From positions 1 through 33,976 of the forward strand of contig CAZRUW010000099.1 of assembly GCA_964603445.1 (NCBI GenBank): a DNA stretch of 33,976 nucleotides, given 5' to 3'. The notes under the pieces are model-generated. The model did not search any database, was not told where the DNA came from, and was given only the letters and a program-made list of their open reading frames with translations. The position numbers were made by a program, and so were the translations under genes. Positions 3,220 to 33,486 of the stretch are shown here, piece by piece. Each line of letters opens with the position of its first letter. Position 1 is the first letter of the stretch. This DNA is from an uncultured Gammaproteobacteria bacterium. GTDB taxonomy: Bacteria; Patescibacteriota; Microgenomatia; JAMCZE01.

Positions 3220-3270
3220 ACATTCAAGAGTAATCTCGAATATAAGAACCTTGAGCTTTCGTTCAAGAAC

Positions 3271-3302
3271 CTTGCGGTCCTCGGCTTCGCCTGCGGGCCT
3301 AA
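3271..3302 (+). repeat. copy of the GNUCC/GGGNC hairpin element, in inverted orientation relative to the other copies
   Basis: The plus strand reads CTTGCGGTCCTCGGCTTCGCCTGCGGGCCTAA. This is the form the other copies show on the minus strand. Confidence 0.75.
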
Positions 3303-3326
3303 CAAATTTATTTGAAAATTGATTTG

Positions 3327-3376
3327 TTAGCCCTGAACACGATTAGTGCTCAGGCGCAAGCAACAAAGTTGCTTAT
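3327..3376 (-). repeat. divergent copy of the hairpin element
   Basis: The plus strand reads TTAGCCCTGAACACGATTAGTGCTCAGGCGCAAGCAACAAAGTTGCTTAT. It shares the TTAGCCC..GCGCAAGC..GCTTAT flanks with the 29772 copy and has its own apical stem. Confidence 0.55.
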
Positions 3377-3392
3377 ATTAGCGATTACTCTT

Positions 3393-3998: not shown

Positions 3999-4051
3999 CA
4001 ACAAAAAATTCTAAGAAACAAGAAACAAACTTGAAAATTAATTATTGATTA

Positions 4052-4141
4052 TATTCATCAGCCTCTAATTTACAAAGGTCTTGATGAATAATACCCATCG
4101 AAATGCGGGAAACGCCTGACAGTTTACCTTATGATGGGTAT
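4052..4141 (-). promoter_or_regulatory. two 9-bp stem-loops in the rpsK-rpsD spacer, a possible rpsD leader structure
   Basis: Stem 1 pairs 4052-4060 TATTCATCA with 4082-4090 TGATGAATA. Stem 2 pairs 4091-4099 ATACCCATC with 4133-4141 GATGGGTAT and encloses GCG-GGAAA-CGC. Confidence 0.5.
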
Positions 4142-4173
4142 ATTACTTTGTATCTTGTATCTTGGTTATTTAA

Positions 4174-4596: not shown

Positions 4597-4647
4597 GTCA
4601 TTTGTCATTCGTCATTGGTCATTGGCAAATGACTAGTAACTAGTGAC
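4597..4647. repeat. 7-nt-periodic array GTCATTN x4 followed by inverted copies
   Basis: GTCATT starts at 4597, 4604, 4611 and 4618. Inverted copies follow: AATGAC at 4628-4633, then TAGTAAC and TAGTGAC (4641-4647). Confidence 0.85.
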
Positions 4648-4657
4648 TAATCCCGGT

Positions 4658-5086
4658 TCATTTCTTTGTTTCTTTCTCTCCCGGCGTTTCTTTAGCAATT
4701 ATTCCCATTTTTTCTGCCAGTTCTTTCTTGATGGCGCCGATGGTTACCCGCTTTCCCCGCTTCGTTCGGGCGTTAGACCGGGTTCGTTGACCTCTGACCG
4801 GCAGATTGCGGGAGTGACGAATCCCCCGGTAACTGCCAATCTGTTTAAGAGCGGCGATATTGGCATGCACTTCGGATCGCAAGTCTCCCTCTACTTTGAC
4901 AGTGTCCAGGACTTTCTGAATTCGGGCAACTTCCTCTTCAGTTAAATCCTTGACTCTTTTGGCCGGATCGACTTCGGCTGTGCTCAGAAATCCGACCACA
5001 TTCGACCTGCCTACTCCGTAGAGCCGGGTCAGGGCAATATCCACTCGTTTGTTGTTGTCTAAGTCCAGTCCAGAAATTCTTGGCAA
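4658..5086 (-). CDS. rpsM: 30S ribosomal protein S13
   Basis: Begins (M)PRISGLDLD...ALTRLYGVGRS. The start codon is TTG at 5084-5086, with no in-frame ATG nearby. Confidence 0.94.
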   Translation of the reverse strand: MPRISGLDLDNNKRVDIALTRLYGVGRSNVVGFLSTAEVDPAKRVKDLTEEEVARIQKVLDTVKVEGDLRSEVHANIAALKQIGSYRGIRHSRNLPVRGQRTRSNARTKRGKRVTIGAIKKELAEKMGIIAKETPGEKETKK

Positions 5087-5090
5087 TTTA

Positions 5091-5156
5091 GTTCACGGTT
5101 CACTGTTCACGGTTCACGGTAATTTTTATCTACTGTGAACCCGGTTTACTGTGAAC
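5091..5156. repeat. 7-nt-periodic array GTTCACN x4 followed by inverted GTGAAC copies
   Basis: GTTCAC starts at 5091, 5098, 5105 and 5112. GTGAAC occurs at 5135-5140 and 5151-5156. Confidence 0.85.
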
Positions 5157-5164
5157 TCGGTTTA

Positions 5165-5278
5165 CTACCCTTGACGCTGTTTATGTCTTGGGTTCTCACA
5201 AATGACATAAATTCGCCCTTTGCGGCGAATAATTTTGCACTTAGCACATCTGGGTTTTACGCTGGCTTGTACCTTCAA
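5165..5278 (-). CDS. rpmJ: 50S ribosomal protein L36 (absent from the ORF track)
   Basis: Hand translation of the minus strand gives [42 protein letters not shown] (37 aa). It has the CxxC...C...H zinc motif and the canonical infA-rpmJ-rpsM position. Confidence 0.92.
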
Positions 5279-5319
5279 TTCACTAGACAATAGAGGATCG
5301 AAGATTGAAAATAGTAGTA

Positions 5320-5397
5320 GACGATGGAAGACAGAGGATAGACTTTTTCTATCTTCTACTTTCTATCATCTCGACCTATCTTCCACCTTCTATCATC
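5320..5397. repeat. three copies (one inverted, two direct) of a ~22-nt unit with 7-nt sub-periodicity
   Basis: 5349-5370 CTATCTTCTACTTTCTATCATC and 5376-5397 CTATCTTCCACCTTCTATCATC are direct copies. 5320-5341 GACGATGGAAGACAGAGGATAG is the inverted copy. The heptads follow CTAYCWT. Confidence 0.85.
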
Positions 5398-5406
5398 TAT
5401 CGTCCA

Positions 5407-5625
5407 TTACTTTGATCTATATACGATTCTTCCCCTCGTCGTGTCGTAAGGTGTCATTTCCACTTTGACTTTGTCTCCGGGAATAATTTTGATGTGATGC
5501 AGGCGCATTTTTCCGGAAAGCACACCAAGAATAATTCTTCCGTCCACAAGTTGAATCTTGAACATCGTGTTGGGCAAATTCTCCAGGACTGTCCCGTCAA
5601 ATTCCGTCGTTCCTTGGTGGGCCAT
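5407..5625 (-). CDS. infA: translation initiation factor IF-1
   Basis: 72 aa with the S1-like motif [24 protein letters not shown]. Confidence 0.95.
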
Positions 5626-5679
5626 TTCTTGTGAACAAAAAAACCTGGCCCAAGTATTCCTATTCTTAGGCTAGGCGAT

Positions 5680-5736
5680 TTAGGCCCGCACCCTGAGACA
5701 TCTCGAAGGGGAGGACCGCAATCACGAAGTGATTAT
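5680..5736 (-). repeat. copy of the GNUCC/GGGNC hairpin element (map|infA junction)
   Basis: The plus strand reads TTAGGCCCGCACCCTGAGACATCTCGAAGGGGAGGACCGCAATCACGAAGTGATTAT. The second hairpin (AATCAC-GAA-GTGATT) overlaps the map stop codon. Confidence 0.8.
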
Positions 5737-6527
5737 ATTGTATTTGCCACCTTGTTGGCAAGAGTCAGTATCTGGGGGCCGTTTTCGGTCACCGCGACGG
5801 TGTGCTCAAATAATCCGGAGGGCAGCCCGTCCCGGGTAACGATAGTCCAGCCGTCATTATTGTCATAAACTACGGCGGATGCGCCCATGTTGTAAATGAC
5901 TTCGACTGCAAAAACCATCCCTTTCTTAATTTCCGGAGTGTTTTCGATGCGACCCCGGAGGTAACAGGGAATTTCCGGATCCTCATGAAGCTGCCTGCCA
6001 ACCCCATGGCCGACCAGTTGTTTGACACAACTGTATCCTCCACCTTCAATGGTATCCTGAATAGCTTTGGAGATGTTACCAATGTGGTTTCCCGGGACAC
6101 ACTTCTTTATGGCCTCTTTGAGAGCATTCTCTCCAACCTTTAAAAATTTCTCTATTTCTTCATTCTTTCTTCCCTCTTCTCTTTTCTCTTTTATTTGTGT
6201 GGTCCAGCTGGCATCAGTGTGGAAACCCTGGTAGAAAACCCCTAAGTCTACCCCCAAAACATCACCCTCCTGTAATTTATAGTCAGTAGGTATTCCGTGA
6301 ACCACCATATCATTGACGCACATGCAGGAGGCAAAATGATACCCTTGTTCCATTTTAAAGGAGGGTTTAGCCCCGGCGGAGATAATTAAATCCTCGGCGT
6401 ACCTGTCCAGTTCCAGGGTGGTTACGCCAGCAACAGCTTTTTTTAAAACCTGACGAACCACGTCCCCCAGAATTCTTCCTCCAGAATGCATAATTTTAAT
6501 TTCAGTAGGAAATTTTATATTAATCAT
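5733..6527 (-). CDS. map: type I methionine aminopeptidase
   Basis: 264 aa with MetAP metal-ligand blocks (VVHGIP, DLGV, GHGVG, FAVEV, EHTVAVT). Confidence 0.93.
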   Translation of the reverse strand: MINIKFPTEIKIMHSGGRILGDVVRQVLKKAVAGVTTLELDRYAEDLIISAGAKPSFKMEQGYHFASCMCVNDMVVHGIPTDYKLQEGDVLGVDLGVFYQGFHTDASWTTQIKEKREEGRKNEEIEKFLKVGENALKEAIKKCVPGNHIGNISKAIQDTIEGGGYSCVKQLVGHGVGRQLHEDPEIPCYLRGRIENTPEIKKGMVFAVEVIYNMGASAVVYDNNDGWTIVTRDGLPSGLFEHTVAVTENGPQILTLANKVANTI

Positions 6528-8617: not shown

Positions 8618-9625
8618 TCAAATATTTTTCGGAGCATATAATGCTCCCCGCGTCTTCCCCACTTTGACTATAAGACTTTCATCCATTAGAGCTTTGAGGT
8701 CGTAACGAAGCATCCGCGGGTCAATTTGCAGAAAACGGCGGCGCAGAAAATCTAAGGAAACCAATCGGTGGTCTCTGATTGTGTCGAGCAGTTCGCGACG
8801 GCGAGGAGGAAGCAGATCCTCGTCGGTGAATCTCCTCTTAGCAATAATTTTATCTTTGGCCTTTTTTGAAGCACTGACCAGAAATTCGAGCATAAGTTCC
8901 AAAAAGGCGGTAGCGTCGGAAGCGGCAGAATCCTCAATCGCATTGTAATAGAGAGTGCGGTTTTTTTCGATTTCTTCCTCAACAACCGTCAATCCTTTCA
9001 TTGAATAACCATTTCTAGTGAGAATAGCCAGTTGTAACAGTCGTCCCACGCGCCCGCTGCCATCCACGAATGGGTGGATTTTCTCCATAGTCAGGTGGGA
9101 AAGGACAGCTCGGACTGGAATAAGTTTTTCCCTGGAACTGTTAGCATAGGCAAGAAGGGTCAGAACCAAACCGGGAACTTCGCTTGGCGGTGGCGCGTGA
9201 TAAATCAATGTACCAGCTTGGTCAAATATTCCTTCCTGACTCTGGCGAAAAATACCAGTATATTCACTCGACAGAATGTTTCTCATTGCCCTTTCGTGAA
9301 GTTTGAGAAGGTGCTTTACCGTTATTTCTCTTTTCTTCATATATGTTTGAAGTACGTCAGTTATACAATGGGTAAGATTGGCTACCTCAACTTTTTTCTT
9401 TTCCTTGCCAGTCAAATCACGGAAACTGCTTACTTGTGCCCTGGTCAGAGGATTGCCCTCCACTCGGGCAGAATATAGAGAACTTCCCAGAATTGATTCC
9501 CGGCGAAAATTTTCTTCAACTTTAACCGGAACGTTGACGGAATCAATAGTAGCTCGATTGGCTTCGAGTTCGAGTAATAGGCCGGTAATTTTCTTGGTGA
9601 GCCGGTATTTAGGAGGAATTATCAT
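8618..9625 (-). CDS. Fic/DOC-family protein with an N-terminal inhibitory motif and a C-terminal winged helix
   Basis: Fic motif HPFVDGSGRVGR, SxxxEG motif SARVEG, and a C-terminal LLDTIRDHRLVSLDFLRRRF...LRYDLKAL wHTH. I chose the ATG at 9623-9625 (MIIPPKYRL...), giving 335 aa. Confidence 0.85.
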   Translation of the reverse strand: MIIPPKYRLTKKITGLLLELEANRATIDSVNVPVKVEENFRRESILGSSLYSARVEGNPLTRAQVSSFRDLTGKEKKKVEVANLTHCITDVLQTYMKKREITVKHLLKLHERAMRNILSSEYTGIFRQSQEGIFDQAGTLIYHAPPPSEVPGLVLTLLAYANSSREKLIPVRAVLSHLTMEKIHPFVDGSGRVGRLLQLAILTRNGYSMKGLTVVEEEIEKNRTLYYNAIEDSAASDATAFLELMLEFLVSASKKAKDKIIAKRRFTDEDLLPPRRRELLDTIRDHRLVSLDFLRRRFLQIDPRMLRYDLKALMDESLIVKVGKTRGALYAPKNI

Positions 9626-9689
9626 GTCACCAAATATTTCCAGATTTCTCCAGATAATGCAATATAGATTTAGTGTTACAATCTGTCTC

Positions 9690-10139
9690 ATGGTGCATGT
9701 TGCCATCATGAAGAGGTCCTGGGGGATGATTCCCAAGATTTTGTCCGGAGAAAAGACCATTGAGAGCCGGTGGTATAAAACAAGACGAGCACCGTGGGAT
9801 AGGATAAAGGAGGGAGAAGAAATCTATTTCAAAAATTCTGGGGAAATGGTAACTATCAAAGCTGTGGTGTCCGGATTACTTCAGTTCTCGGATCTCACAC
9901 CAAGAAAAATCAGAGAGATTCTGGATAAATTCGGACATGACGACGGTATCAAGCAAGAAAAGATTCCGTATTTTGCCAAGCTCTTTGCTGACAAAAAATA
10001 TTGCCTTCTGGTTTTTCTCAAAAATCCTCGGAGAGTTAAACCTTTTGAGGTAGACAAAACCGGTTTTGGAGCAATGAGCGCGTGGATTACTGTTGACTCG
10101 ATTGTTGAAGTGATTTCCGAGATTCATTCATCACCTTAA
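9690..10139 (+). CDS. ASCH (PUA-like fold) domain protein
   Basis: Starts MVHVAIMKRSWGMIPKILSGEKTIESRWYK..., carrying the ASCH signature I..G.KT.E.R. It is ~149 aa. The only plus-strand gene; divergent from Fic across 64 nt. The track ORF's 5' extension runs antisense to Fic and is spurious. Confidence 0.75.
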   Translation: MVHVAIMKRSWGMIPKILSGEKTIESRWYKTRRAPWDRIKEGEEIYFKNSGEMVTIKAVVSGLLQFSDLTPRKIREILDKFGHDDGIKQEKIPYFAKLFADKKYCLLVFLKNPRRVKPFEVDKTGFGAMSAWITVDSIVEVISEIHSSP

Positions 10140-10314
10140 CTGATATTTTTACGACTTTTCTTATCTCCCAAAAACTTATGCGTCTTTTATCGAGGCCATA
10201 GGCATGAAATTCCGTTGTTTTAAGATCTCTCCATTCTTGAGGCCTTACACCTAACCTGAGAGCAGTAAGTGTATCAGAATGCCAAACCTGTTTTAGAACA
10301 TCCACGCCAATCAT
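10087..10314 (-). CDS. small hypothetical protein, possibly an excisionase/MerR-type HTH
   Basis: 75 aa from the ATG at 10312-10314. LRLGVRPQEWRDLKTTEFHAYGLDKRRISFWEIRK resembles the excisionase-family pattern LGVs..t.yRw...g.lpAy..G.r..f...ei. Its 3' end overlaps the ASCH 3' end antisense by 53 nt. Confidence 0.35.
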   Translation of the reverse strand: MIGVDVLKQVWHSDTLTALRLGVRPQEWRDLKTTEFHAYGLDKRRISFWEIRKVVKISVKVMNESRKSLQQSSQQ

Positions 10315-10321
10315 TGCTGTT

Positions 10322-10327
10322 ATTATA
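10322..10327 (-). promoter_or_regulatory. -10 box TATAAT placed 7 nt before the small-ORF ATG (leaderless configuration)
   Basis: The minus strand reads GTAGTATAATAACAGCAATG. No convincing -35 was seen. Confidence 0.35.
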
Positions 10328-10440
10328 CTACTTTTCTGCAAAGCATCTTATTGTGCTCCAAAATAGGGTCCGACCCTGCAAAGACACAGCCTTCCAGATA
10401 TTACGAGGTCTTTCGAGAAGTTTCGAGATATTACAAGATA

Positions 10441-14450: not shown

Positions 14451-14619
14451 AAACTTCCCCGATTCTACGATCGGGGTTTTCTAGAGCCCCAGTTTAATGA
14501 GGCTCACGAAAACTCCAACATTATCTGATTTTGTTTCCAGTATATTAGTCAAGGTTTTAGAAAGTATCGCCTTCATCTCCAAGCTCACGCTTGGAGTTTT
14601 CTGCGAGCCGATTTTAAAT
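14451..14619 (-). promoter_or_regulatory. structured leader element, copy A (rpsQ|rplN spacer), beginning at a -10-like TAAAAT
   Basis: It is alignable to 21376-21540. Conserved blocks are shared, and three helices have different sequences in the two copies but preserved pairing (see findings). The minus-strand TAAAAT is at 14611-14616. Confidence 0.65.
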
Positions 14620-15486: not shown

Positions 15487-16221
15487 TTAGTTACTGATTG
15501 TTTGTGTTACTGGTTGCTGATTACTGGTTGCCGGCAGACATATCCAGACTTTGACTCCGACATAACCGGAGCGGGTGTACGCCGGGTAGGCAGCAAAGTC
15601 AATTTTTTCCTTAACAGAACTTAGGGGGACTACTCCGGCCTGCTCATGTTCCACCCGAGCGATTTCCGCTCCGCCAATACGGCCCCCAAGCCGAACACGA
15701 ACACCTTTCGCTCCGGCGGCCATAACTCTTTCAACCGTTTGTTTGAGAACTCTTTTTGCAGGAAGTCTTTTCGCCAGTTGATCAGCAATGCTCACAGCCA
15801 CAAGTTGAGCATCAAGATTTGGCTCTTTTATCGGTTCGACTTTGATATCAACCTTGGGGGCGTTTTTTAGGCCCGCATCCCGCCGGCTGGCGGGAGAGGA
15901 CCGCAAGCTCTGCTTATCGCTGGTTTTGACTTTTAATAGTTGAGTCATAATATATTTTTTAAGGTCTTCCATTCCGGTCCCGCCGCGGCCAATGACAACC
16001 CCGGGCCTGGAAACATAGAGAATCAGGCCAATGCGATTAATTGACCGTTCTATTTCCACCCTGGCAATACCAGCCGGCTTGAGGCGGGTCATCAAGGCTT
16101 TGCGAATGCGCACGTCATCAAGCAGGAGGTTTTGGTACCTTTTGTCGGTGGCGAACCAACGGGACGTCCAGGTGTAGACTGGACCTAAACGAAAAGCGAT
16201 GGGATGAACTTTGTTACCCAT
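15487..16221 (-). CDS. rpsC: 30S ribosomal protein S3, carrying an in-frame repeat-element insertion
   Basis: Contains MGNKVHPIAFRLG and GGRIGGAEIAR. The extra segment DKQSLRSSPASRRDAGL is encoded by 15867-15918. Confidence 0.95.
   Translation of the reverse strand: MGNKVHPIAFRLGPVYTWTSRWFATDKRYQNLLLDDVRIRKALMTRLKPAGIARVEIERSINRIGLILYVSRPGVVIGRGGTGMEDLKKYIMTQLLKVKTSDKQSLRSSPASRRDAGLKNAPKVDIKVEPIKEPNLDAQLVAVSIADQLAKRLPAKRVLKQTVERVMAAGAKGVRVRLGGRIGGAEIARVEHEQAGVVPLSSVKEKIDFAAYPAYTRSGYVGVKVWICLPATSNQQPVTQTISN
15867..15918 (-). repeat. copy of the GNUCC/GGGNC hairpin element inside the rpsC coding sequence
   Basis: The plus strand reads TTAGGCCCGCATCCCGCCGGCTGGCGGGAGAGGACCGCAAGCTCTGCTTATC. It matches the 33433 copy at 21/22 over GAGGAYCGCAAGCTCTGCTTAT. 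Confidence 0.8.
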
Positions 16222-16622: not shown

Positions 16623-16907
16623 TTAAGTTTTGGTTAATACCCGAGCAACAATTCGACCATGAGTATGGAAGGTCCGTGTCGGGGCAAATTCGCCGAGCCG
16701 ATGGCCGACCATAGCCTCAGTAATAAAGACCGGTATGTGCACCCGACCGTTATGGACAGCAAGAGTGACCCCCACAAAATCCGGCGGAATTTGACAGTCC
16801 CGAGACCAGGTTTTTATGGGAGTTTTATCCCCGGTGTTCTTGGCACTGATTACTTTGGCCAAAAGTTTTTGGTCAACATAGGGTCCTTTTTTGCTTGATC
16901 TGGCCAT
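16623..16907 (-). CDS. rpsS: 30S ribosomal protein S19
   Basis: Starts [16 protein letters not shown] and contains ...[28 protein letters not shown]. Confidence 0.95.
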
Positions 16908-16918
16908 TTTTGTTTACA

Positions 16919-16958
16919 GTTCAGAGTTCACGGTTCACAGAAAGTTTTCAGTGTGAAC
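16919..16958. repeat. GTTCAS heptad array plus inverted GTGAAC, the same heptamer as at 5091-5156
   Basis: GTTCAG is at 16919, GTTCAC at 16926 and 16933, and GTGAAC at 16953-16958. GTTCACGGTTCAC is shared verbatim with 5091-5103. Confidence 0.8.
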
Positions 16959-20028: not shown

Positions 20029-20134
20029 TTGTCAAAAGGTCCTTTACCCTAAGGCCCAAGTCCAAAGGGCAAGTTCCACTTTCAAAGAGCAAAGTGTAAG
20101 TAACTTAAGTTACTTAAGAATCTTAAGGAACTTA

Positions 20135-21375: not shown

Positions 21376-21540
21376 AAACTTCTTTGGACTGAAAGTCCAA
21401 AGTCTTCCCCGGAAGTTTAATGAAGCTCACGGAAACTCTGGCATCACTAAACGGCACTTTTTGCCTTCGGCAGAAGTTTTAATCTGTTCGCATTTACCTC
21501 TTGTCTAAAGACAAGAGTTTCCTGCGAGTTGATTATAAAA
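21376..21540 (-). promoter_or_regulatory. structured leader element, copy B (fusA|tuf spacer)
   Basis: It is the paralogue of 14451-14619, with the same conserved blocks and covarying helices. A further 53 nt separate it from the tuf ATG. Confidence 0.65.
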
Positions 21541-21561
21541 TAGCCTCGTTAACCTTTGCAA
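21532..21561 (-). promoter_or_regulatory. candidate promoter TTGCAA-N18-TATAAT for tuf
   Basis: On the minus strand, TTGCAA is at 21556-21561 and TATAAT at 21532-21537. The -10 box coincides with the conserved end block of the leader element. Confidence 0.55.
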
Positions 21562-21569
21562 GACCCAAA

Positions 21570-23734: not shown

Positions 23735-24139
23735 CTAAGTTAAATCAGTGAATGGGTTATATGCTACTTCCCACAAATAGTCATCGGGGTCAGCAAAGTA
23801 ACCTCCATACCCGCCCCAAAAAACATCTTGGGGTTTTTTAACCATCTTGGCCCCAACAGAAACGGCTTTTTTAATGATTTCGTCCACTTCTTCTTTAGAG
23901 CTAACATTATGAGAAAGGGTAACTCCAGAAAAACCTGAGCCCTCTTTTGAAACGGTGGCGTCTTTAGCCAATCGATCTTTAGGATATAAGCAAAGCCAAG
24001 TTCCCTCCAATTCGAACATGGCGAAGCCGTCACTTTCTTTGTAATTATGAGTTTTAAACTTTAAACCATCTTTATAGAAGCGAAATGATTTATCGAAATT
24101 GGAAACGCCAAGGGTTATTAAACTAATTTTTGGCTTCAC
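23735..24139 (-). CDS. VOC (glyoxalase/bleomycin-resistance/dioxygenase) family protein
   Basis: 134 aa. It starts ISLITLGVSNFDKSFRFYKDGL and ends WGGYGGYFADPDDYLWEVAYNP. The start codon is GTG at 24137-24139, 7 nt after the upstream stop. Confidence 0.8.
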   Translation of the reverse strand: MKPKISLITLGVSNFDKSFRFYKDGLKFKTHNYKESDGFAMFELEGTWLCLYPKDRLAKDATVSKEGSGFSGVTLSHNVSSKEEVDEIIKKAVSVGAKMVKKPQDVFWGGYGGYFADPDDYLWEVAYNPFTDLT

Positions 24140-24146
24140 AACTTGA

Positions 24147-24992
24147 TTATATCTCTTTTAGAAACTTACTGAGGCAAACACCTTGCGATTTTTTGATTTC
24201 CCATTCGTCCAGATGTATTGTTTGGAAACCATGATCAGTCAAAAACTCCTCGCGCTTTTGGTCTTTTTCTTTTGCCCCCGGGATATTGTGCCAATAGGAG
24301 CCGTCGCACTCGATTAGAAGGTTTGTCCCTTTTATCTGAAAATCAGCGTGATATTTGCCAATGTGGACTTCTTGATCGAATGAAATATTTTTATTTGTTA
24401 AGTAGTCACGGACAATTTTCTCAATAGAGGTCTCACCCTTAAACCGGATATAACAGCGTCGCGAACAAAAAGTGCCCTTGCCTTTGTTTGTCTCCCAAGT
24501 TGGAAGTTGAAATTCTTTGTGGCAATTTTTACAAATTTTGGAAACATAGTCCCGTTCAAAATTATCTTTGCACACCTTGCTACAAAAAACTGCTTTAGTG
24601 GCAAAAGCGGGGGCTCTTTCCATTAATTTTTCGCACTGTTTACAAGTCAAGTGGACGTGTTTTTCTTGACGAGATTTTTGGAAGCATTCAAAGCTACAAA
24701 AGAAACCGAAACCTTGTTCAACTAAGTAGGCTTTTACTTCAAATTTCTTGCCGCATCTTTGACAAGTTTTAATCTGCTTTCTTTTTGTAGAAGAATGGTA
24801 ACAATCGCTAGAGCAATAGTTAATTTTGTGTTTTTGAAACGGCCACAAATTAATATTCTTGCCACAACCAAAACAAGTTGTCAAAACGCGACGTTTTTGA
24901 CTCTCCGATTTACATTTTCGCGAGCAAAATTTTCGGTGTCGTTGAATTTGCTCGCTAGTTAGTAAGTTAGAACAAAATTGACATTTTATCAT
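24147..24992 (-). CDS. five tandem Cys4 (TRASH/FCS-like) zinc-ribbon repeats fused to a DUF559/Vsr-like PD-(D/E)XK endonuclease domain
   Basis: There are 5 repeats of C-x2-C-x15-17-(F/Y)C-x3-C. The C-terminus is IVRDYL...YHADFQI...LLIECDGSYWHN...EKDQKREEFLTDHGFQTIHL. I chose the ATG at 24990-24992. Confidence 0.75.
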   Translation of the reverse strand: MIKCQFCSNLLTSEQIQRHRKFCSRKCKSESQKRRVLTTCFGCGKNINLWPFQKHKINYCSSDCYHSSTKRKQIKTCQRCGKKFEVKAYLVEQGFGFFCSFECFQKSRQEKHVHLTCKQCEKLMERAPAFATKAVFCSKVCKDNFERDYVSKICKNCHKEFQLPTWETNKGKGTFCSRRCYIRFKGETSIEKIVRDYLTNKNISFDQEVHIGKYHADFQIKGTNLLIECDGSYWHNIPGAKEKDQKREEFLTDHGFQTIHLDEWEIKKSQGVCLSKFLKEI

Positions 24993-25048
24993 CAAATACC
25001 AGCGTAAATCCGAAAAGAAGACGAATCAAGAAGTAATATACTACAGGT

Positions 25049-29764: not shown

Positions 29765-29771
29765 AATGGTT

Positions 29772-29826
29772 TTAGCCCCGCACCGAGTCTGACTCGGGAG
29801 GAGCGCAAGCACGCAAGCGCTTATTC
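29772..29826 (-). repeat. copy of the GNUCC/GGGNC hairpin element filling the rpoB|rpoC spacer
   Basis: The plus strand reads TTAGCCCCGCACCGAGTCTGACTCGGGAGGAGCGCAAGCACGCAAGCGCTTATTC. Its end overlaps the rpoB stop codon (29821-29823). Confidence 0.8.
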
Positions 29827-33369: not shown

Positions 33370-33432
33370 TACAGGGTGATTTTGGCAGACACGACAAAAT
33401 CAAGCGAACCCACAAAATGTTCGCCTAAAATT

Positions 33433-33473
33433 TTAGACCCGCAGCGCTAGCGAGGATCGCAAGCTCTGCTTAT
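33433..33473 (-). repeat. short copy of the GNUCC/GGGNC hairpin element in the rpoB 5' leader
   Basis: The plus strand reads TTAGACCCGCAGCGCTAGCGAGGATCGCAAGCTCTGCTTAT. Confidence 0.75.
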
Positions 33474-33486
33474 TCAGTTGAGAAGA

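Follow-up and report, generated by a model that had tools for sequence, protein, structure and literature searches.

Short palindromic repeats that lie within coding sequences have been described in bacteria and in organelles. The Rickettsia palindromic elements, RPE-1 to RPE-10, are defined by their in-frame presence inside unrelated housekeeping genes (PMC10969869, whose summary draws on Ogata et al. 2000, 2002). In yeast mitochondrial DNA, optional GC clusters are found in frame in VAR1/rps3, which encodes uS3m (PMC4464245), and MITEs are sometimes co-transcribed and sometimes fused to open reading frames (PMC10969869). Below, we describe a GC-rich double hairpin within rpsC of a 33,976-nt stretch of DNA, all of which was analysed and which we call the window. 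This segment is likely one copy of a non-autonomous mobile DNA repeat family. The features at rpsC are as follows.

15487 to 16221, minus strand: rpsC (ribosomal protein uS3), the host gene, 244 aa in the ORF list
15868 to 15915, minus strand: 48-nt insert, AAGCAGAGCTT GC GGTCC TC TCCCGCCAGCCGGCGGGA TGC GGGCC TA, delimited by comparing filled and empty sites (L002/L003)
15905 to 15915, minus strand: hairpin 1, AAGC-AGA-GCTT, which folds and has an AAG/CTT foot conserved family-wide
15870 to 15902, minus strand: long hairpin 2, supported by RNA and DNA folds and by covariation

The minus strand from 15918 to 15867 reads GATAAGCAGAGCTTGCGGTCCTCTCCCGCCAGCCGGCGGGATGCGGGCCTAA, and the surrounding rpsC ORF encodes ..SDKQSLRSSPASRRDAGLKNAPKV.. 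with no stop. The in-frame, stop-free palindromic repeat reported here by an earlier, sequence-only reading is therefore present exactly as read. Its extent, given there as 15867-15918 and 17-18 residues, is revised to 48 nt, 15868-15915 (16 codons); because the placement is uncertain by 2 nt, 15866-15913 is equally possible. The piece AAG...CTA sits between the T and the AAA of the GAT AAA codons and encodes KQSLRSSPASRRDAGL; apart from it, the gene is intact. A covariance-model match spans 15864-15918 (70.4 bits, E = 1.2e-14). The insert falls between the KH and C-terminal domains (PF07650 and PF00189 in the homologue table), the linker position originally assigned to it, and PDB alignments agree. 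In these alignments the linker exceeds that of Thermus or Firmicute S3 by ~25 residues, with nearly the same offsets for E. coli chains, and the element supplies only 16 of the extra residues; this slightly corrects the earlier estimate of a linker about 20 residues shorter in E. coli. Residues 102-118 of the AF2 model score below 50 in pLDDT and lack secondary structure. Judging by the reading frame, the insert is probably transcribed and translated, its 16 residues forming a disordered loop in the solvent-exposed KH/C-terminal linker of uS3, a loop that appears to be tolerated rather than useful.

Comparison with orthologues defines the insertion site. About 97 of 101 measurable close S3 orthologues are without the insert; in four of the 101 the same codon is occupied by the insert or by a remnant of 24-27 nt (P0011, P0061). 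An alignment of this kind had been proposed with the original observation, and it shows that the linker is not shared by the orthologues. At 88% identity, the closest orthologue is without exactly these 48 nt. Empty sites read GAT AAA AAC (L002) and GAC AAA AAC (L003), and the filled site in the window reads GAT [AAG..CTA] AAA AAC. In a distant clade, the same S3 codon holds an element with a different hairpin 2. Measured against the empty GATAAAAAC, two S3 inserts are 48 nt and 39 nt long with only a 2-nt (AA) ambiguity. In a neighbour-joining tree of S3, P0001, P0005 and P0011 fall into three clades with insert-free sisters in each; gain or loss has occurred at exactly this codon in three separate S3 clades. 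Assembly error does not explain the insert, since the insert-bearing gene is identical in two independent assemblies, SRR12217121 and SRR12217123. Metagenome scans for this species' rpsC with an empty site, and for sequences identical to the rpsC subfamily, each gave 0 matches, in data from which the species may be absent.

Five further copies lie elsewhere in the window.

33430 to 33474, minus strand: copy in the rplL-rpoB spacer, with the same hairpin 1 as the rpsC copy (57.1 bits, E = 1.4e-11)
29769 to 29825, minus strand: copy in the rpoB-rpoC spacer (covariance model, 50.1 bits)
5677 to 5737, minus strand: copy directly 3' of map (covariance model, 43.4 bits)
3241 to 3305, plus strand: copy in the rpsD-rpoA spacer, with a long hairpin 1 and in opposite orientation (43.3 bits)
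3324 to 3377, minus strand: degenerate copy with an eroded basal helix (17.5 bits, E = 0.02)

The further copies listed in the first reading are thus all present, at 33433-33473(-), 29772-29826(-), 5680-5736(-) and 3272-3302(+), with the degenerate one at 3327-3376(-), and the 21/22 match between the rpsC and rplL-rpoB copies is correct. As suggested at that time, the similarity was set against dinucleotide-preserving shuffles and against a covariance model. The pattern TTGCGNNCCTCN{3,33}TGCGGGNCTAA has 5 matches in the window and none in 100 shuffles. Trained on copies from other genomes, the covariance model picks out these six sites in the window (E = 1e-14, 1e-11, 6e-10, 2e-8, 2e-8 and 0.02) and no others at E < 1; it has 104 matches in 675 kb of loci. 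Compensatory changes are seen in the basal helices of the rplL-rpoB copy (GATCC/GGGTC) and the rpoB-rpoC copy (GCTCC/GGGGC). The stop codons of rpoB and map are the 5' TAA of the copies that follow them (29823-29821 and 5735-5733, respectively), and the orthologous map-infA spacer of L003 is without the post-map copy. The copies at 3241..3305 (+) and 3324..3377 (-) form a tail-to-tail inverted pair. Hairpin 2 differs in all six copies; nothing in the window thus points to a recent burst, which counts against the mobile reading.

Element density is 6 per 34 kb in the window and 3 per 10 kb in L001, with about one extra copy per 65 kb elsewhere. Enrichment in ribosomal-protein operons was considered and rejected: the apparent secY cluster proved to consist of Fic paralogues, leaving only the higher density of the window and L001. 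The C-terminus of L22 (..RTSHITVILSER) was suspected at first of being repeat-derived and was dropped for its resemblance to what we take to be the native C-terminus of E. coli L22. ARAGORN finds no tRNA and no tmRNA in the window.

The copies share a common fold in which hairpin feet and junctions are conserved and covarying stems are hypervariable, in support of the hairpin architecture as first described. Hairpin 1 has its AAG foot in 79-92% of 85 copies, and its distal sequences vary yet stay paired. Hairpin 2 of the rpsC copy has a basal helix of GGTCC (15902-15898) with GGGCC (15874-15870), including a conserved T.G wobble, and above it a C-G pair, small internal loops and a variable stem, TCCCGCC/GGCGGGA (15895-15878). 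The basal N/N' pair is GC in 63 copies, AU in 9, CG in 5 and GU in 5, and A.C in only 2 cases, which are chance matches in non-CPR genomes. The 81 distinct distal stems have Watson-Crick pairs at 377 of their 481 positions, compared with 136 in shuffles. In alignment A2, 94.9% of cells are paired (20-55% in slid controls), and there are 39 double-change cells, compared with 10.7 in shuffles. Hypervariable stems beside conserved unpaired bases are a signature of selected structure, for which RNA is equally possible. Folded as single-stranded DNA, the two strands are nearly equal in energy, with modest z-scores; the active strand is therefore not assignable from folding. Rfam 15 gives no match to the whole window at gathering thresholds and only chance-level matches (E >= 1) to the element region at permissive thresholds. 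On its 5' side the element is flanked by A/T before the AAG, and on its 3' side CTAA is followed by A and then G/A; comparison of L032 with L050 assigns the bases before AAG to the flank. The insertion target is (A)T^AAA(G/A).

The family comprises at least 97 copies, nearly all from MAGs of Candidatus Curtissbacteria, which are tiny, uncultured members of the CPR, and more than 112 genomic stretches carry it, again almost all from Curtissbacteria. Copies are 36-94 nt long (median 54). Subfamilies defined by hairpin 2 recur across loci and genomes. The best explanation of these observations is that the family has spread among Candidatus Curtissbacteria and a small number of neighbouring CPR lineages. 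A search of 2.9 M viral contigs returned 0 matches and hence no evidence of phage carriage. At least 15 sense and at least two antisense in-frame copies lie inside genes with Pfam domains, and other copies lie in spacers. Sense hosts include an HhH-GPD glycosylase, transketolase, an MBL-fold protein, a class I aaRS, dCTP deaminase, GMP synthase and, in two species, trigger factor; the antisense hosts are an RnfD-like protein and the LepA GTPase domain. These copies are read as ..SLRSS..AGLK in the sense orientation and as LGP..RTASFAY in the antisense orientation.

How such a repeat might move can be outlined from its structure. We infer a hairpin-recognising, single-strand (HUH-like) mechanism of spread. 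The element would fold as a single strand, and a trans-acting enzyme would read the hairpin feet and junction bases, namely AAG/CTT, GC, GGTCC.GGGCC with its T.G wobble, and the TAA tail. The enzyme would then paste the element at T^AAA without target duplication, by an HUH/Y1-type 'peel-and-paste' reaction like that of IS200/IS605-derived or REP-like elements. Each insertion would re-form the target ..CTA^AAA at its 3' end, which would explain head-to-tail arrays. In coding DNA, selection would spare only copies of length 3n, in xxT^AAA contexts and in flexible loops. Together with a single open sense frame, such selection would account for the constant SLRSS..AGLK peptide and for the reused S3 site. 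In 53 of the 71 loci where skew could be measured, the sense strand of the element is also the G-rich one, a bias expected of strand-specific ssDNA insertion and confounded with gene orientation.

The loci were also searched for a mobilising enzyme. No transposase, HUH, Y1/RAYT or TnpA gene is seen among the neighbours of copies or arrays in the loci; the arrays in L037, L067, L115 and L076 adjoin genes for a sigma factor, nusG-rplKA, GlmS and succinyl-CoA synthetase. A search of the 675 kb of loci with unpaired 5' and 3' halves, for a full-length version carrying an ORF, found only diverged small copies. Clustering of 2119 ORFs from the loci returned recurrent clusters of orthologous housekeeping genes (glycosyltransferases, a PHP-like protein, a ligase, Fic paralogues) and no transposases. 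Hairpins 1 and 2 are unlike each other, in contrast to IS200/IS605 ends, and a guide sequence would not fit 5' of hairpin 1; both points speak against the proposed mode of spread. It is conceivable, if on the doubtful side, that the family represents a new structure-guided class of mobile DNA: a minimal unit of two hairpins whose distal stems can be exchanged, which inserts at T^AAA with no duplication, is perhaps precisely excised, and is moved by a CPR enzyme that could be of a novel HUH type or RNA-templated. Such a class, hitting the same codons, would be a systematic maker of lineage-specific surface loops in CPR proteomes, the ribosome included.

A different view of the same structure is that the family acts mainly in RNA, as an RNase III/processing site or an mRNA-stabilising hairpin kept by selection, with the rpsC copy as a by-product or as a modulator of S3 translation. 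Several observations agree with it. Five of the six window copies are in mRNA sense, in spacers of the rplL-rpoBC, str, S10/spc and alpha operons, and between co-directional genes family-wide there are 28 sense and 15 antisense copies. RNA folding energies reach -12 to -27 kcal/mol (four of the seven copies folded have z near -3), a U.G wobble is retained in the basal helix, where 5 copies have G.U intermediates, trigger-factor copies of two species differ by compensatory pairs, and covarying stems with conserved unpaired bases resemble functional RNA. However, one in three spacer copies runs antisense to the genes beside it, and others have convergent or divergent neighbours. The copies in LepA and the RnfD-like gene are antisense as well, G.T is not favoured over A.C in distal stems (19 and 13, respectively), and there is no Rfam match. 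Presence is patchy among close relatives in the same operon, with copy positions differing among the window, L001 and L003, and this counts against a universal regulatory role because such a role predicts conserved positions. We therefore regard a primarily RNA-level function as unlikely, and mobile DNA as the better reading.

Spread as mobile DNA could in principle also follow the classical MITE route, in which a deletion derivative of a DDE-transposase IS is cut and pasted and leaves a target-site duplication of TAA, TA or AAR. Such a derivative would be small, dispersed, AT-targeted and free of coding sequence, as the element is, and TAA stands at both ends of the element (..ATAAG...CTAA..). 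However, there are no terminal inverted repeats: neither 5' AAGC..GCTTGCGG nor the 5' end taken as AAGCAGAGCTTGCGG resembles the reverse complement of the 3' end, TAGGCCCGCA. A TA, TAA or TAAA duplication was rejected on length, with TA or TAA predicting 47 and 38 nt for the two S3 inserts rather than the measured 48 and 39 nt; an imperfect 3-nt duplication of an AAR triplet is possible in the S3 inserts and would fit the 48-nt length. The 5' AAG is far more conserved than the 3' flank, and a parent IS with these ends was not found in 675 kb. A MITE origin is accordingly very improbable.

Two further explanations can be dismissed. Removal of the 48 nt as a mini-intron, or ribosome bypass, has in its favour a stable two-hairpin structure between similar short flanks (T AAG .. 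CTA AAA), but its probability is negligible: in either orientation the coding copies run through the host frame with no stop, and 14 of 15 have a length of 3n, which would be needed only if they were translated, and there is no match to a ribozyme or intron family. Native protein-level expansion of a linker that already varies among Microgenomates (18 or 24-26 residues), with coincidental spacer similarity, or else an assembly chimera, is effectively refuted by a nucleotide pattern far above chance, by the exact 48-nt difference from the nearest orthologue, by the filled codon with another hairpin 2 in a distant clade and by an identical allele in three assemblies.

A repeat in uS3 and a dozen other core proteins extends RPE-style invasion of coding DNA to CPR bacteria, by an apparently unrelated and much smaller family. 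This CPR family thus does the same as RPE and the VAR1 clusters, and selfish hairpin invasion of coding DNA therefore appears to be recurrent in small genomes rather than a one-off. Protein alignments on which CPR phylogeny relies, with uS3 as a standard marker, become inflated and distorted by the inserts, which also yield spurious 'lineage-specific' motifs such as SLRSS..AGLK. Gene callers can also be misled at stop and start codons, as the rpoB and map stops illustrate. The fixed feet and junctions, free distal stems, T^AAA target and lack of duplication provide a handle for finding the mobilising enzyme.

Among known systems, MITEs such as Correia/NEMIS, ERIC, BOX and Nezha share with this family a small size, non-coding nature, dispersal and RNA-foldability. 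They are DDE-derived, with terminal inverted repeats and target-site duplications, and neither of these features was found here when tested. REP/REPIN-RAYT systems and IS200/IS605-derived PATEs are closer in design: they are hairpin-based, have no terminal inverted repeats, need no target duplication, are recognised through hairpin feet and short flanking single-stranded motifs, are strand-asymmetric, and are non-autonomous and mobilised in trans. REP/REPIN elements, however, have a GTAG head and a single imperfect palindrome, are extragenic and usually form inverted doublets, and REPs typically flank the cognate RAYT (Y1 HUH) gene; the Curtissbacteria family has no GTAG, two hairpins, many coding copies and mostly singletons (the sole inverted pair in the window is at 3241-3377). 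IS200/IS605 elements insert 3' of a fixed 4-5-nt target and can be excised precisely. The PATE-like traits seen here are subterminal hairpins, absence of inverted repeats and duplication, a fixed short target and a G-rich/sense strand bias. In IS200/IS605, left and right hairpins are alike and bound by one TnpA dimer, guide tetranucleotides lie 5' of each foot, and there is a cognate TnpA. Here, hairpin 1 (AAG/CTT foot) differs from hairpin 2 (GGTCC/GGGCC foot), the target abuts hairpin 1, and a typical IS200/IS605 end pair is larger than the whole element.

A literature search found no paper on such palindromic elements in CPR bacteria; this and the Rfam result agree with the original statement that the element was not recognised as any named family. 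On the best reading, the Curtissbacteria family is an analogue of RPE and of the GC clusters that yeast mitochondria have in VAR1/uS3m, apparently unrelated in sequence and much smaller. Like the GC clusters, it consists of short, GC-rich, palindromic mobile units in an AT-richer background, mostly in spacers and also in frame in the uS3 gene, where they alter protein size, and tandem arrays occur in both. M-class yeast GC clusters sit at short AT-rich target repeats. The yeast clusters differ in their eukaryotic organelle host, their site in uS3 and their own class consensus sequences, with no sequence relation. RPE and the Curtissbacteria family both consist of palindromic repeats that are scattered through spacers and also, with unusual frequency, lie in frame in unrelated housekeeping genes, each adding a family-specific peptide at fold-compatible places; both have hosts with small, reduced genomes, and a transposase is known for neither. 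They are set apart by their descriptions, with RPE of ~100-150 bp confined to Rickettsia (Alphaproteobacteria) and the present elements of 36-94 nt in CPR bacteria. Unlike RPE, the latter have two short hairpins, hypervariable distal stems, fixed feet and junctions, and a sharp T^AAA target. The likeness to RPE suggested by the sequence-only reading thus holds for behaviour, through in-frame copies in unrelated housekeeping genes, and not for membership, given the differences in size, host and apparently sequence: it is a functional likeness.

The window is a super-operon of ribosomal-protein and RNA-polymerase genes from Microgenomates (CPR), all on the minus strand, in which rpsC (15487..16221, minus strand, an ORF of 244 aa) is interrupted in frame by a palindromic element. 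The segment at 15918..15867 reads GATAAGCAGAGCTTGCGGTCCTCTCCCGCCAGCCGGCGGGATGCGGGCCTAA in mRNA sense, identical to the sequence picked out by the sequence-only reading, and codes for ..SDKQSLRSSPASRRDAGLKNAPKV.. within the rpsC frame, as that reading had claimed. In an alignment of 36 S3 orthologues, the nearest proteins (P0002 at 88%, P0003 and P0004) carry ..DDKNAPKV.. in its place. The corresponding empty-site DNA is GAT AAA AAC in locus L002 and GAC AAA AAC in locus L003, and the filled site in the window is GAT [AAG CAG ... GGC CTA] AAA AAC. The segment is an insertion of 48 nt, with a placement ambiguity of only 2 nt (AA). Two further sequencing runs gave the same assembled rpsC, insert included, which rules out a chimera. 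The loop is presumably translated.

Every other copy that the sequence-only reading had listed was found in the window. The generalised pattern TTGCGNNCCTCN{3,33}TGCGGGNCTAA has five matches in the window and none in 100 dinucleotide-preserving shuffles, so the similarity is significant against shuffled controls. When a covariance model made from 31 copies (29 taken from other loci, the remaining two being the window's rpsC and rplL-rpoB copies) was run on the window, it matched six sites and no others:

15864-15918, minus strand: rpsC copy, E = 1e-14
33430-33474: rplL-rpoB copy, E = 1e-11
29769-29825: element copy, E = 6e-10
5677-5737: element copy, E = 2e-8
3241-3305: element copy, E = 2e-8
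3324-3377: degenerate element copy, E = 0.02

Copies occur about once per 5.7 kb in the window and three times per 10 kb in locus L001; the other loci (L005-L116) hold only about one additional copy per 65 kb across 675 kb of element-bearing sequence. Either a genome rich in copies or a hot spot at the ribosomal super-operon may lie behind this difference.

A scan of species-representative genomes returned more than 112 element-bearing stretches among the matches listed, overwhelmingly in Candidatus Curtissbacteria MAGs, with a few from Levyibacteriota, WWE3 and Saccharimonadales. Some of the matches listed come from MAGs under the name ‘uncultured Gammaproteobacteria’, with the same elements; such TPA_asm entries with canonical copies include L008, L010, L019, L023, L029, L032, L034, L037 and others, and they were probably given placeholder or erroneous taxonomic names. 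A handful of matches in unrelated bacteria are obvious chance matches, and 2.9 million viral contigs yielded no copy.

With ^ marking the element boundaries, the sense consensus is (A)T ^ AAG-[hairpin 1]-CTT GC GGTCC T C-[hairpin 2]-T G C GGGCC TA ^ A A(G/A). The foot of hairpin 1 is AAG/CTT; hairpin 2 stands on a 5-bp basal helix, GGTCC/GGGCC, in which a T.G wobble is invariant. Further out, both hairpins are free to differ in sequence and length: hairpin 2 exists in 81 distinct versions of 6 to 30 nt with pairing kept, its symmetric positions being Watson-Crick at 377/481 versus 136 in shuffles. Covariation is also seen at the variable basal-helix pair (GC 63, AU 9, CG 5, GU 5). Pairing holds in 94.9% of the cells of the 31-sequence alignment, and 39 cells show double changes, against 10.7 in shuffles, a value that 0/500 shuffles reach; sliding the partners by 1-3 columns lowers pairing to 20-55%. 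The structure is thus backed by covariation. Hairpin-2 subfamilies such as GGCTTCGCC, GTCCTTCGGAC, CCCCGCAAAGCGGGG, GTCCGCCAGCTGGCGGAC and GTCCTTCGATGAACTCAGGAC recur at unrelated loci in different genomes, as expected from several proliferating lineages. Another small palindrome, CCCTTCGACTTCGCTCAGGGCA, is in frame in L005 (DNA ligase) and L044 (NUDIX protein), two unrelated genes, where it reads LRLRSGQA; many copies of the family (e.g. window 5680-5721, L028, L072 and L101) have the same CCTTCGA..CTCAGG unit as the distal stem of their hairpin 2, a sign that the hairpin elements of these genomes may be modular or nested.

Further filled/empty pairs bear on the ends. In GMP synthase, L113 is filled, AAT [AAG..CTA] AAG GTA, and L039 is empty, AAT AAA GTG; in a small ORF, L032 reads ATT [AAG..CTA] AAG and L050 ATT AAA, a comparison that assigns the base before T to the flank rather than to the element. 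The map-infA spacer is likewise filled in the window and empty in L003. All of these pairs are as expected if AAG...CTA goes into T^AAA. Enrichment before AAG is limited to T (67%) and the A in front of it (62%), and after CTAA to A (69%) followed by G/A; beyond these bases the flanks are random. Terminal inverted repeats are absent from the family. Simple models with TA, TAA or TAAA duplications are each one base off the observed lengths; an imperfect AAR triplet duplication is conceivable but would require parallel mutations. Since the target contains TAA, stop codons are frequent sites for copies: two copies in the window have as their 5' TAA the stop codons of rpoB (29823-29821) and map (5735-5733). 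Each insertion also recreates ..CTA^AAA at its own 3' end, which explains the head-to-tail arrays in L037 (1690-1950) and L067 (177-310), with periods of 60 nt and 82 nt; the latter array is immediately upstream of nusG-rplK-rplA. Copies are often preceded or followed by an additional module, AAGCAAAGCTTTTCTGCGAAT, which is a hairpin 1 on its own (L044, L061, L069, L007).

At least 15 sense copies are contained in long ORFs, every one of them read as ..(K)(Q)SLRSS...AGLK.., and several antisense coding copies read LGP(Q/H)...R(T/K)ASFAY. Pfam identifies the following hosts as real proteins, with domains either side of or around the insert:

HhH-GPD glycosylase
transketolase
MBL-fold protein
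class I aminoacyl-tRNA synthetase
trigger factor, at the same site in two species
dCTP-deaminase fusion
GMP synthase
RnfD-like membrane protein, antisense
LepA, GTPase domain, antisense

The length is 3n in 14/15 coding copies. The peptide frame is constant because the element leaves one open sense frame; in the other sense frames 3n copies meet the 5' or 3' TAA, so only xxT^AAA contexts survive. This frame filter, together with the need for a tolerant loop, would also account for S3 being hit at one codon. Across the family, elements are 36-94 nt long (median 54), and 34/68 copies classed as non-coding have 3n length, where one third would be expected; the excess might come from master copies compatible with coding or from coding tails that went unrecognised.

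Linker length was measurable in 101 of the best 120 S3 homologues and is 18 or 24-26 residues in 97 of these and longer in four. The two classes, which differ by the presence or absence of LLKIKxDDKNAP, are found in Microgenomates independently of the element. The window's S3 (P0001) has 16 extra residues. P0005 has 13 element-derived residues plus four more, at the same codon, with hairpin 1 identical to that of the window's rpsC copy and a different, shorter hairpin 2; P0011 and P0061 hold an eroded 24-27-nt remnant, again at this codon. In a neighbour-joining tree, P0001, P0005 and P0011 fall into three different clades, all of which contain insert-free sisters, so the codon was either hit several times independently or cleared by many precise losses. 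The C-terminal tail of P0039 contains ..DKSLRSSAFSQPAADSL.., which looks like another element-derived segment. The linker had been put at about 20 residues longer than in E. coli. It is indeed longer, but by about 25 residues, only 16 of them element-derived: residues 92-122 (31 aa) correspond to 6 residues in Thermus/Firmicute S3 in solved ribosome structures, and E. coli chains give nearly the same alignment offsets. An AlphaFold2 model of modest overall confidence (mean pLDDT 67) leaves residues 102-118, between the last KH helix and the first C-terminal-domain strand, below pLDDT 50 and without secondary structure.

The family is dispersed and coding-compatible, with a defined target and neither inverted repeats nor target duplication. 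L001 has copies in the fusA-tuf spacer, the rplD-rplW spacer and rpsC; in the same operon L003 has none, and the window has six, elsewhere than those of L001, so relatives have gained or lost elements. Because the feet, junction bases and tail are conserved while the stems are free, a protein may recognise a folded single strand of the element. ‘Peel-and-paste’ movement by an HUH/Y1 enzyme of the IS200/IS605 or REP-RAYT kind is a tentative candidate, and would fit the fixed short target, the orientation bias (28:15 sense between co-directional genes; sense strand on the G-rich strand in 53/71 loci) and the lack of duplication and inverted repeats better than DDE cut-and-paste. Against it, the two hairpins are unlike each other and the target abuts hairpin 1 directly; no gene for such an enzyme was seen near copies or arrays. 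The main rival is an RNA-level role in operon transcripts, which would explain the conserved structure and draws on the sense bias, the U.G wobble in the basal helix and stronger RNA folds. As a primary explanation it sits poorly with antisense copies inside genes, copies between convergent or divergent genes, and patchy presence among close relatives. As single-stranded DNA, both strands fold about equally.

The window holds other repeats and accessory genes. A second structured repeat of ~140 nt is shared by the rplN-rpsQ and fusA-tuf spacers (14451-14619 and 21380-21569, minus sense) and reads ..CTCGCAG(A/G)AAACTC[covarying hairpin]..GAGTTT(T/C)CGTGAGC(C/T)TCATTAAACT.., with compensatory differences between its inner hairpins (CTCCAAGC..GCTTGGAG vs CTCTTGTC..GACAAGAG) and no Rfam match at gathering thresholds. 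Short tandem motifs of the GTGAACCGTGAAC type at 5078-5127 and 16899-16948 (minus sense; 78% identity over 50 nt) lie directly upstream of two gene starts, and several other spacers contain short local direct repeats (e.g. 4005-4173, 4609-4657, the 5087-5732 spacer and 20029-20134). The accessory genes are:

24147-24995, minus strand: 282-aa ORF with a DUF559 / REase_MTES_1575 (Vsr-like endonuclease) domain, in the str operon between rpsG and fusA
23735-24139: 134-aa ORF, after the DUF559 ORF
8618-9760: Fic-domain gene homologue between rplO and secY, 55% identical to the L003 Fic gene in the same place

In L006, the rpsG-fusA interval has a ~1.8-kb gap and one element copy where the window has the DUF559 ORF. 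The 680-nt stretch after the Fic homologue (9761-10440) contains no convincing minus-strand ORF, and a plus-strand ORF at 9378-10139 has no Pfam match.

Among known systems, the element is not a MITE, failing on both inverted repeats and duplication, nor a REP/REPIN, failing on GTAG head, extragenic location and doublets. It shares the general features of IS200/IS605 and lacks the specific ones (like hairpins, guide sequences, TnpA). In full-text literature searches, nothing on such elements turned up for Curtissbacteria, Patescibacteria or CPR. Rickettsia palindromic elements are in-frame repeats in unrelated genes, at fold-compatible sites and with no known transposase (PMC10969869), and yeast mitochondrial GC clusters insert into the uS3 gene (VAR1/rps3), altering protein size (PMC4464245). 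The Curtissbacteria family resembles the former in entering unrelated genes in frame at fold-compatible sites and in having no known transposase, and the latter in entering the uS3 gene and altering protein size, but differs from both in size, sequence and host and belongs to neither. The likeness to Rickettsia palindromic elements drawn by the sequence-only reading therefore holds for behaviour, not membership. The S3 element is a compact form of the ‘protein-coding palindromic repeat’, found here in a phylum new to the phenomenon and inside a ribosomal protein that is universal, with an unusually well-defined anatomy and evidence for recurrent use of one codon.
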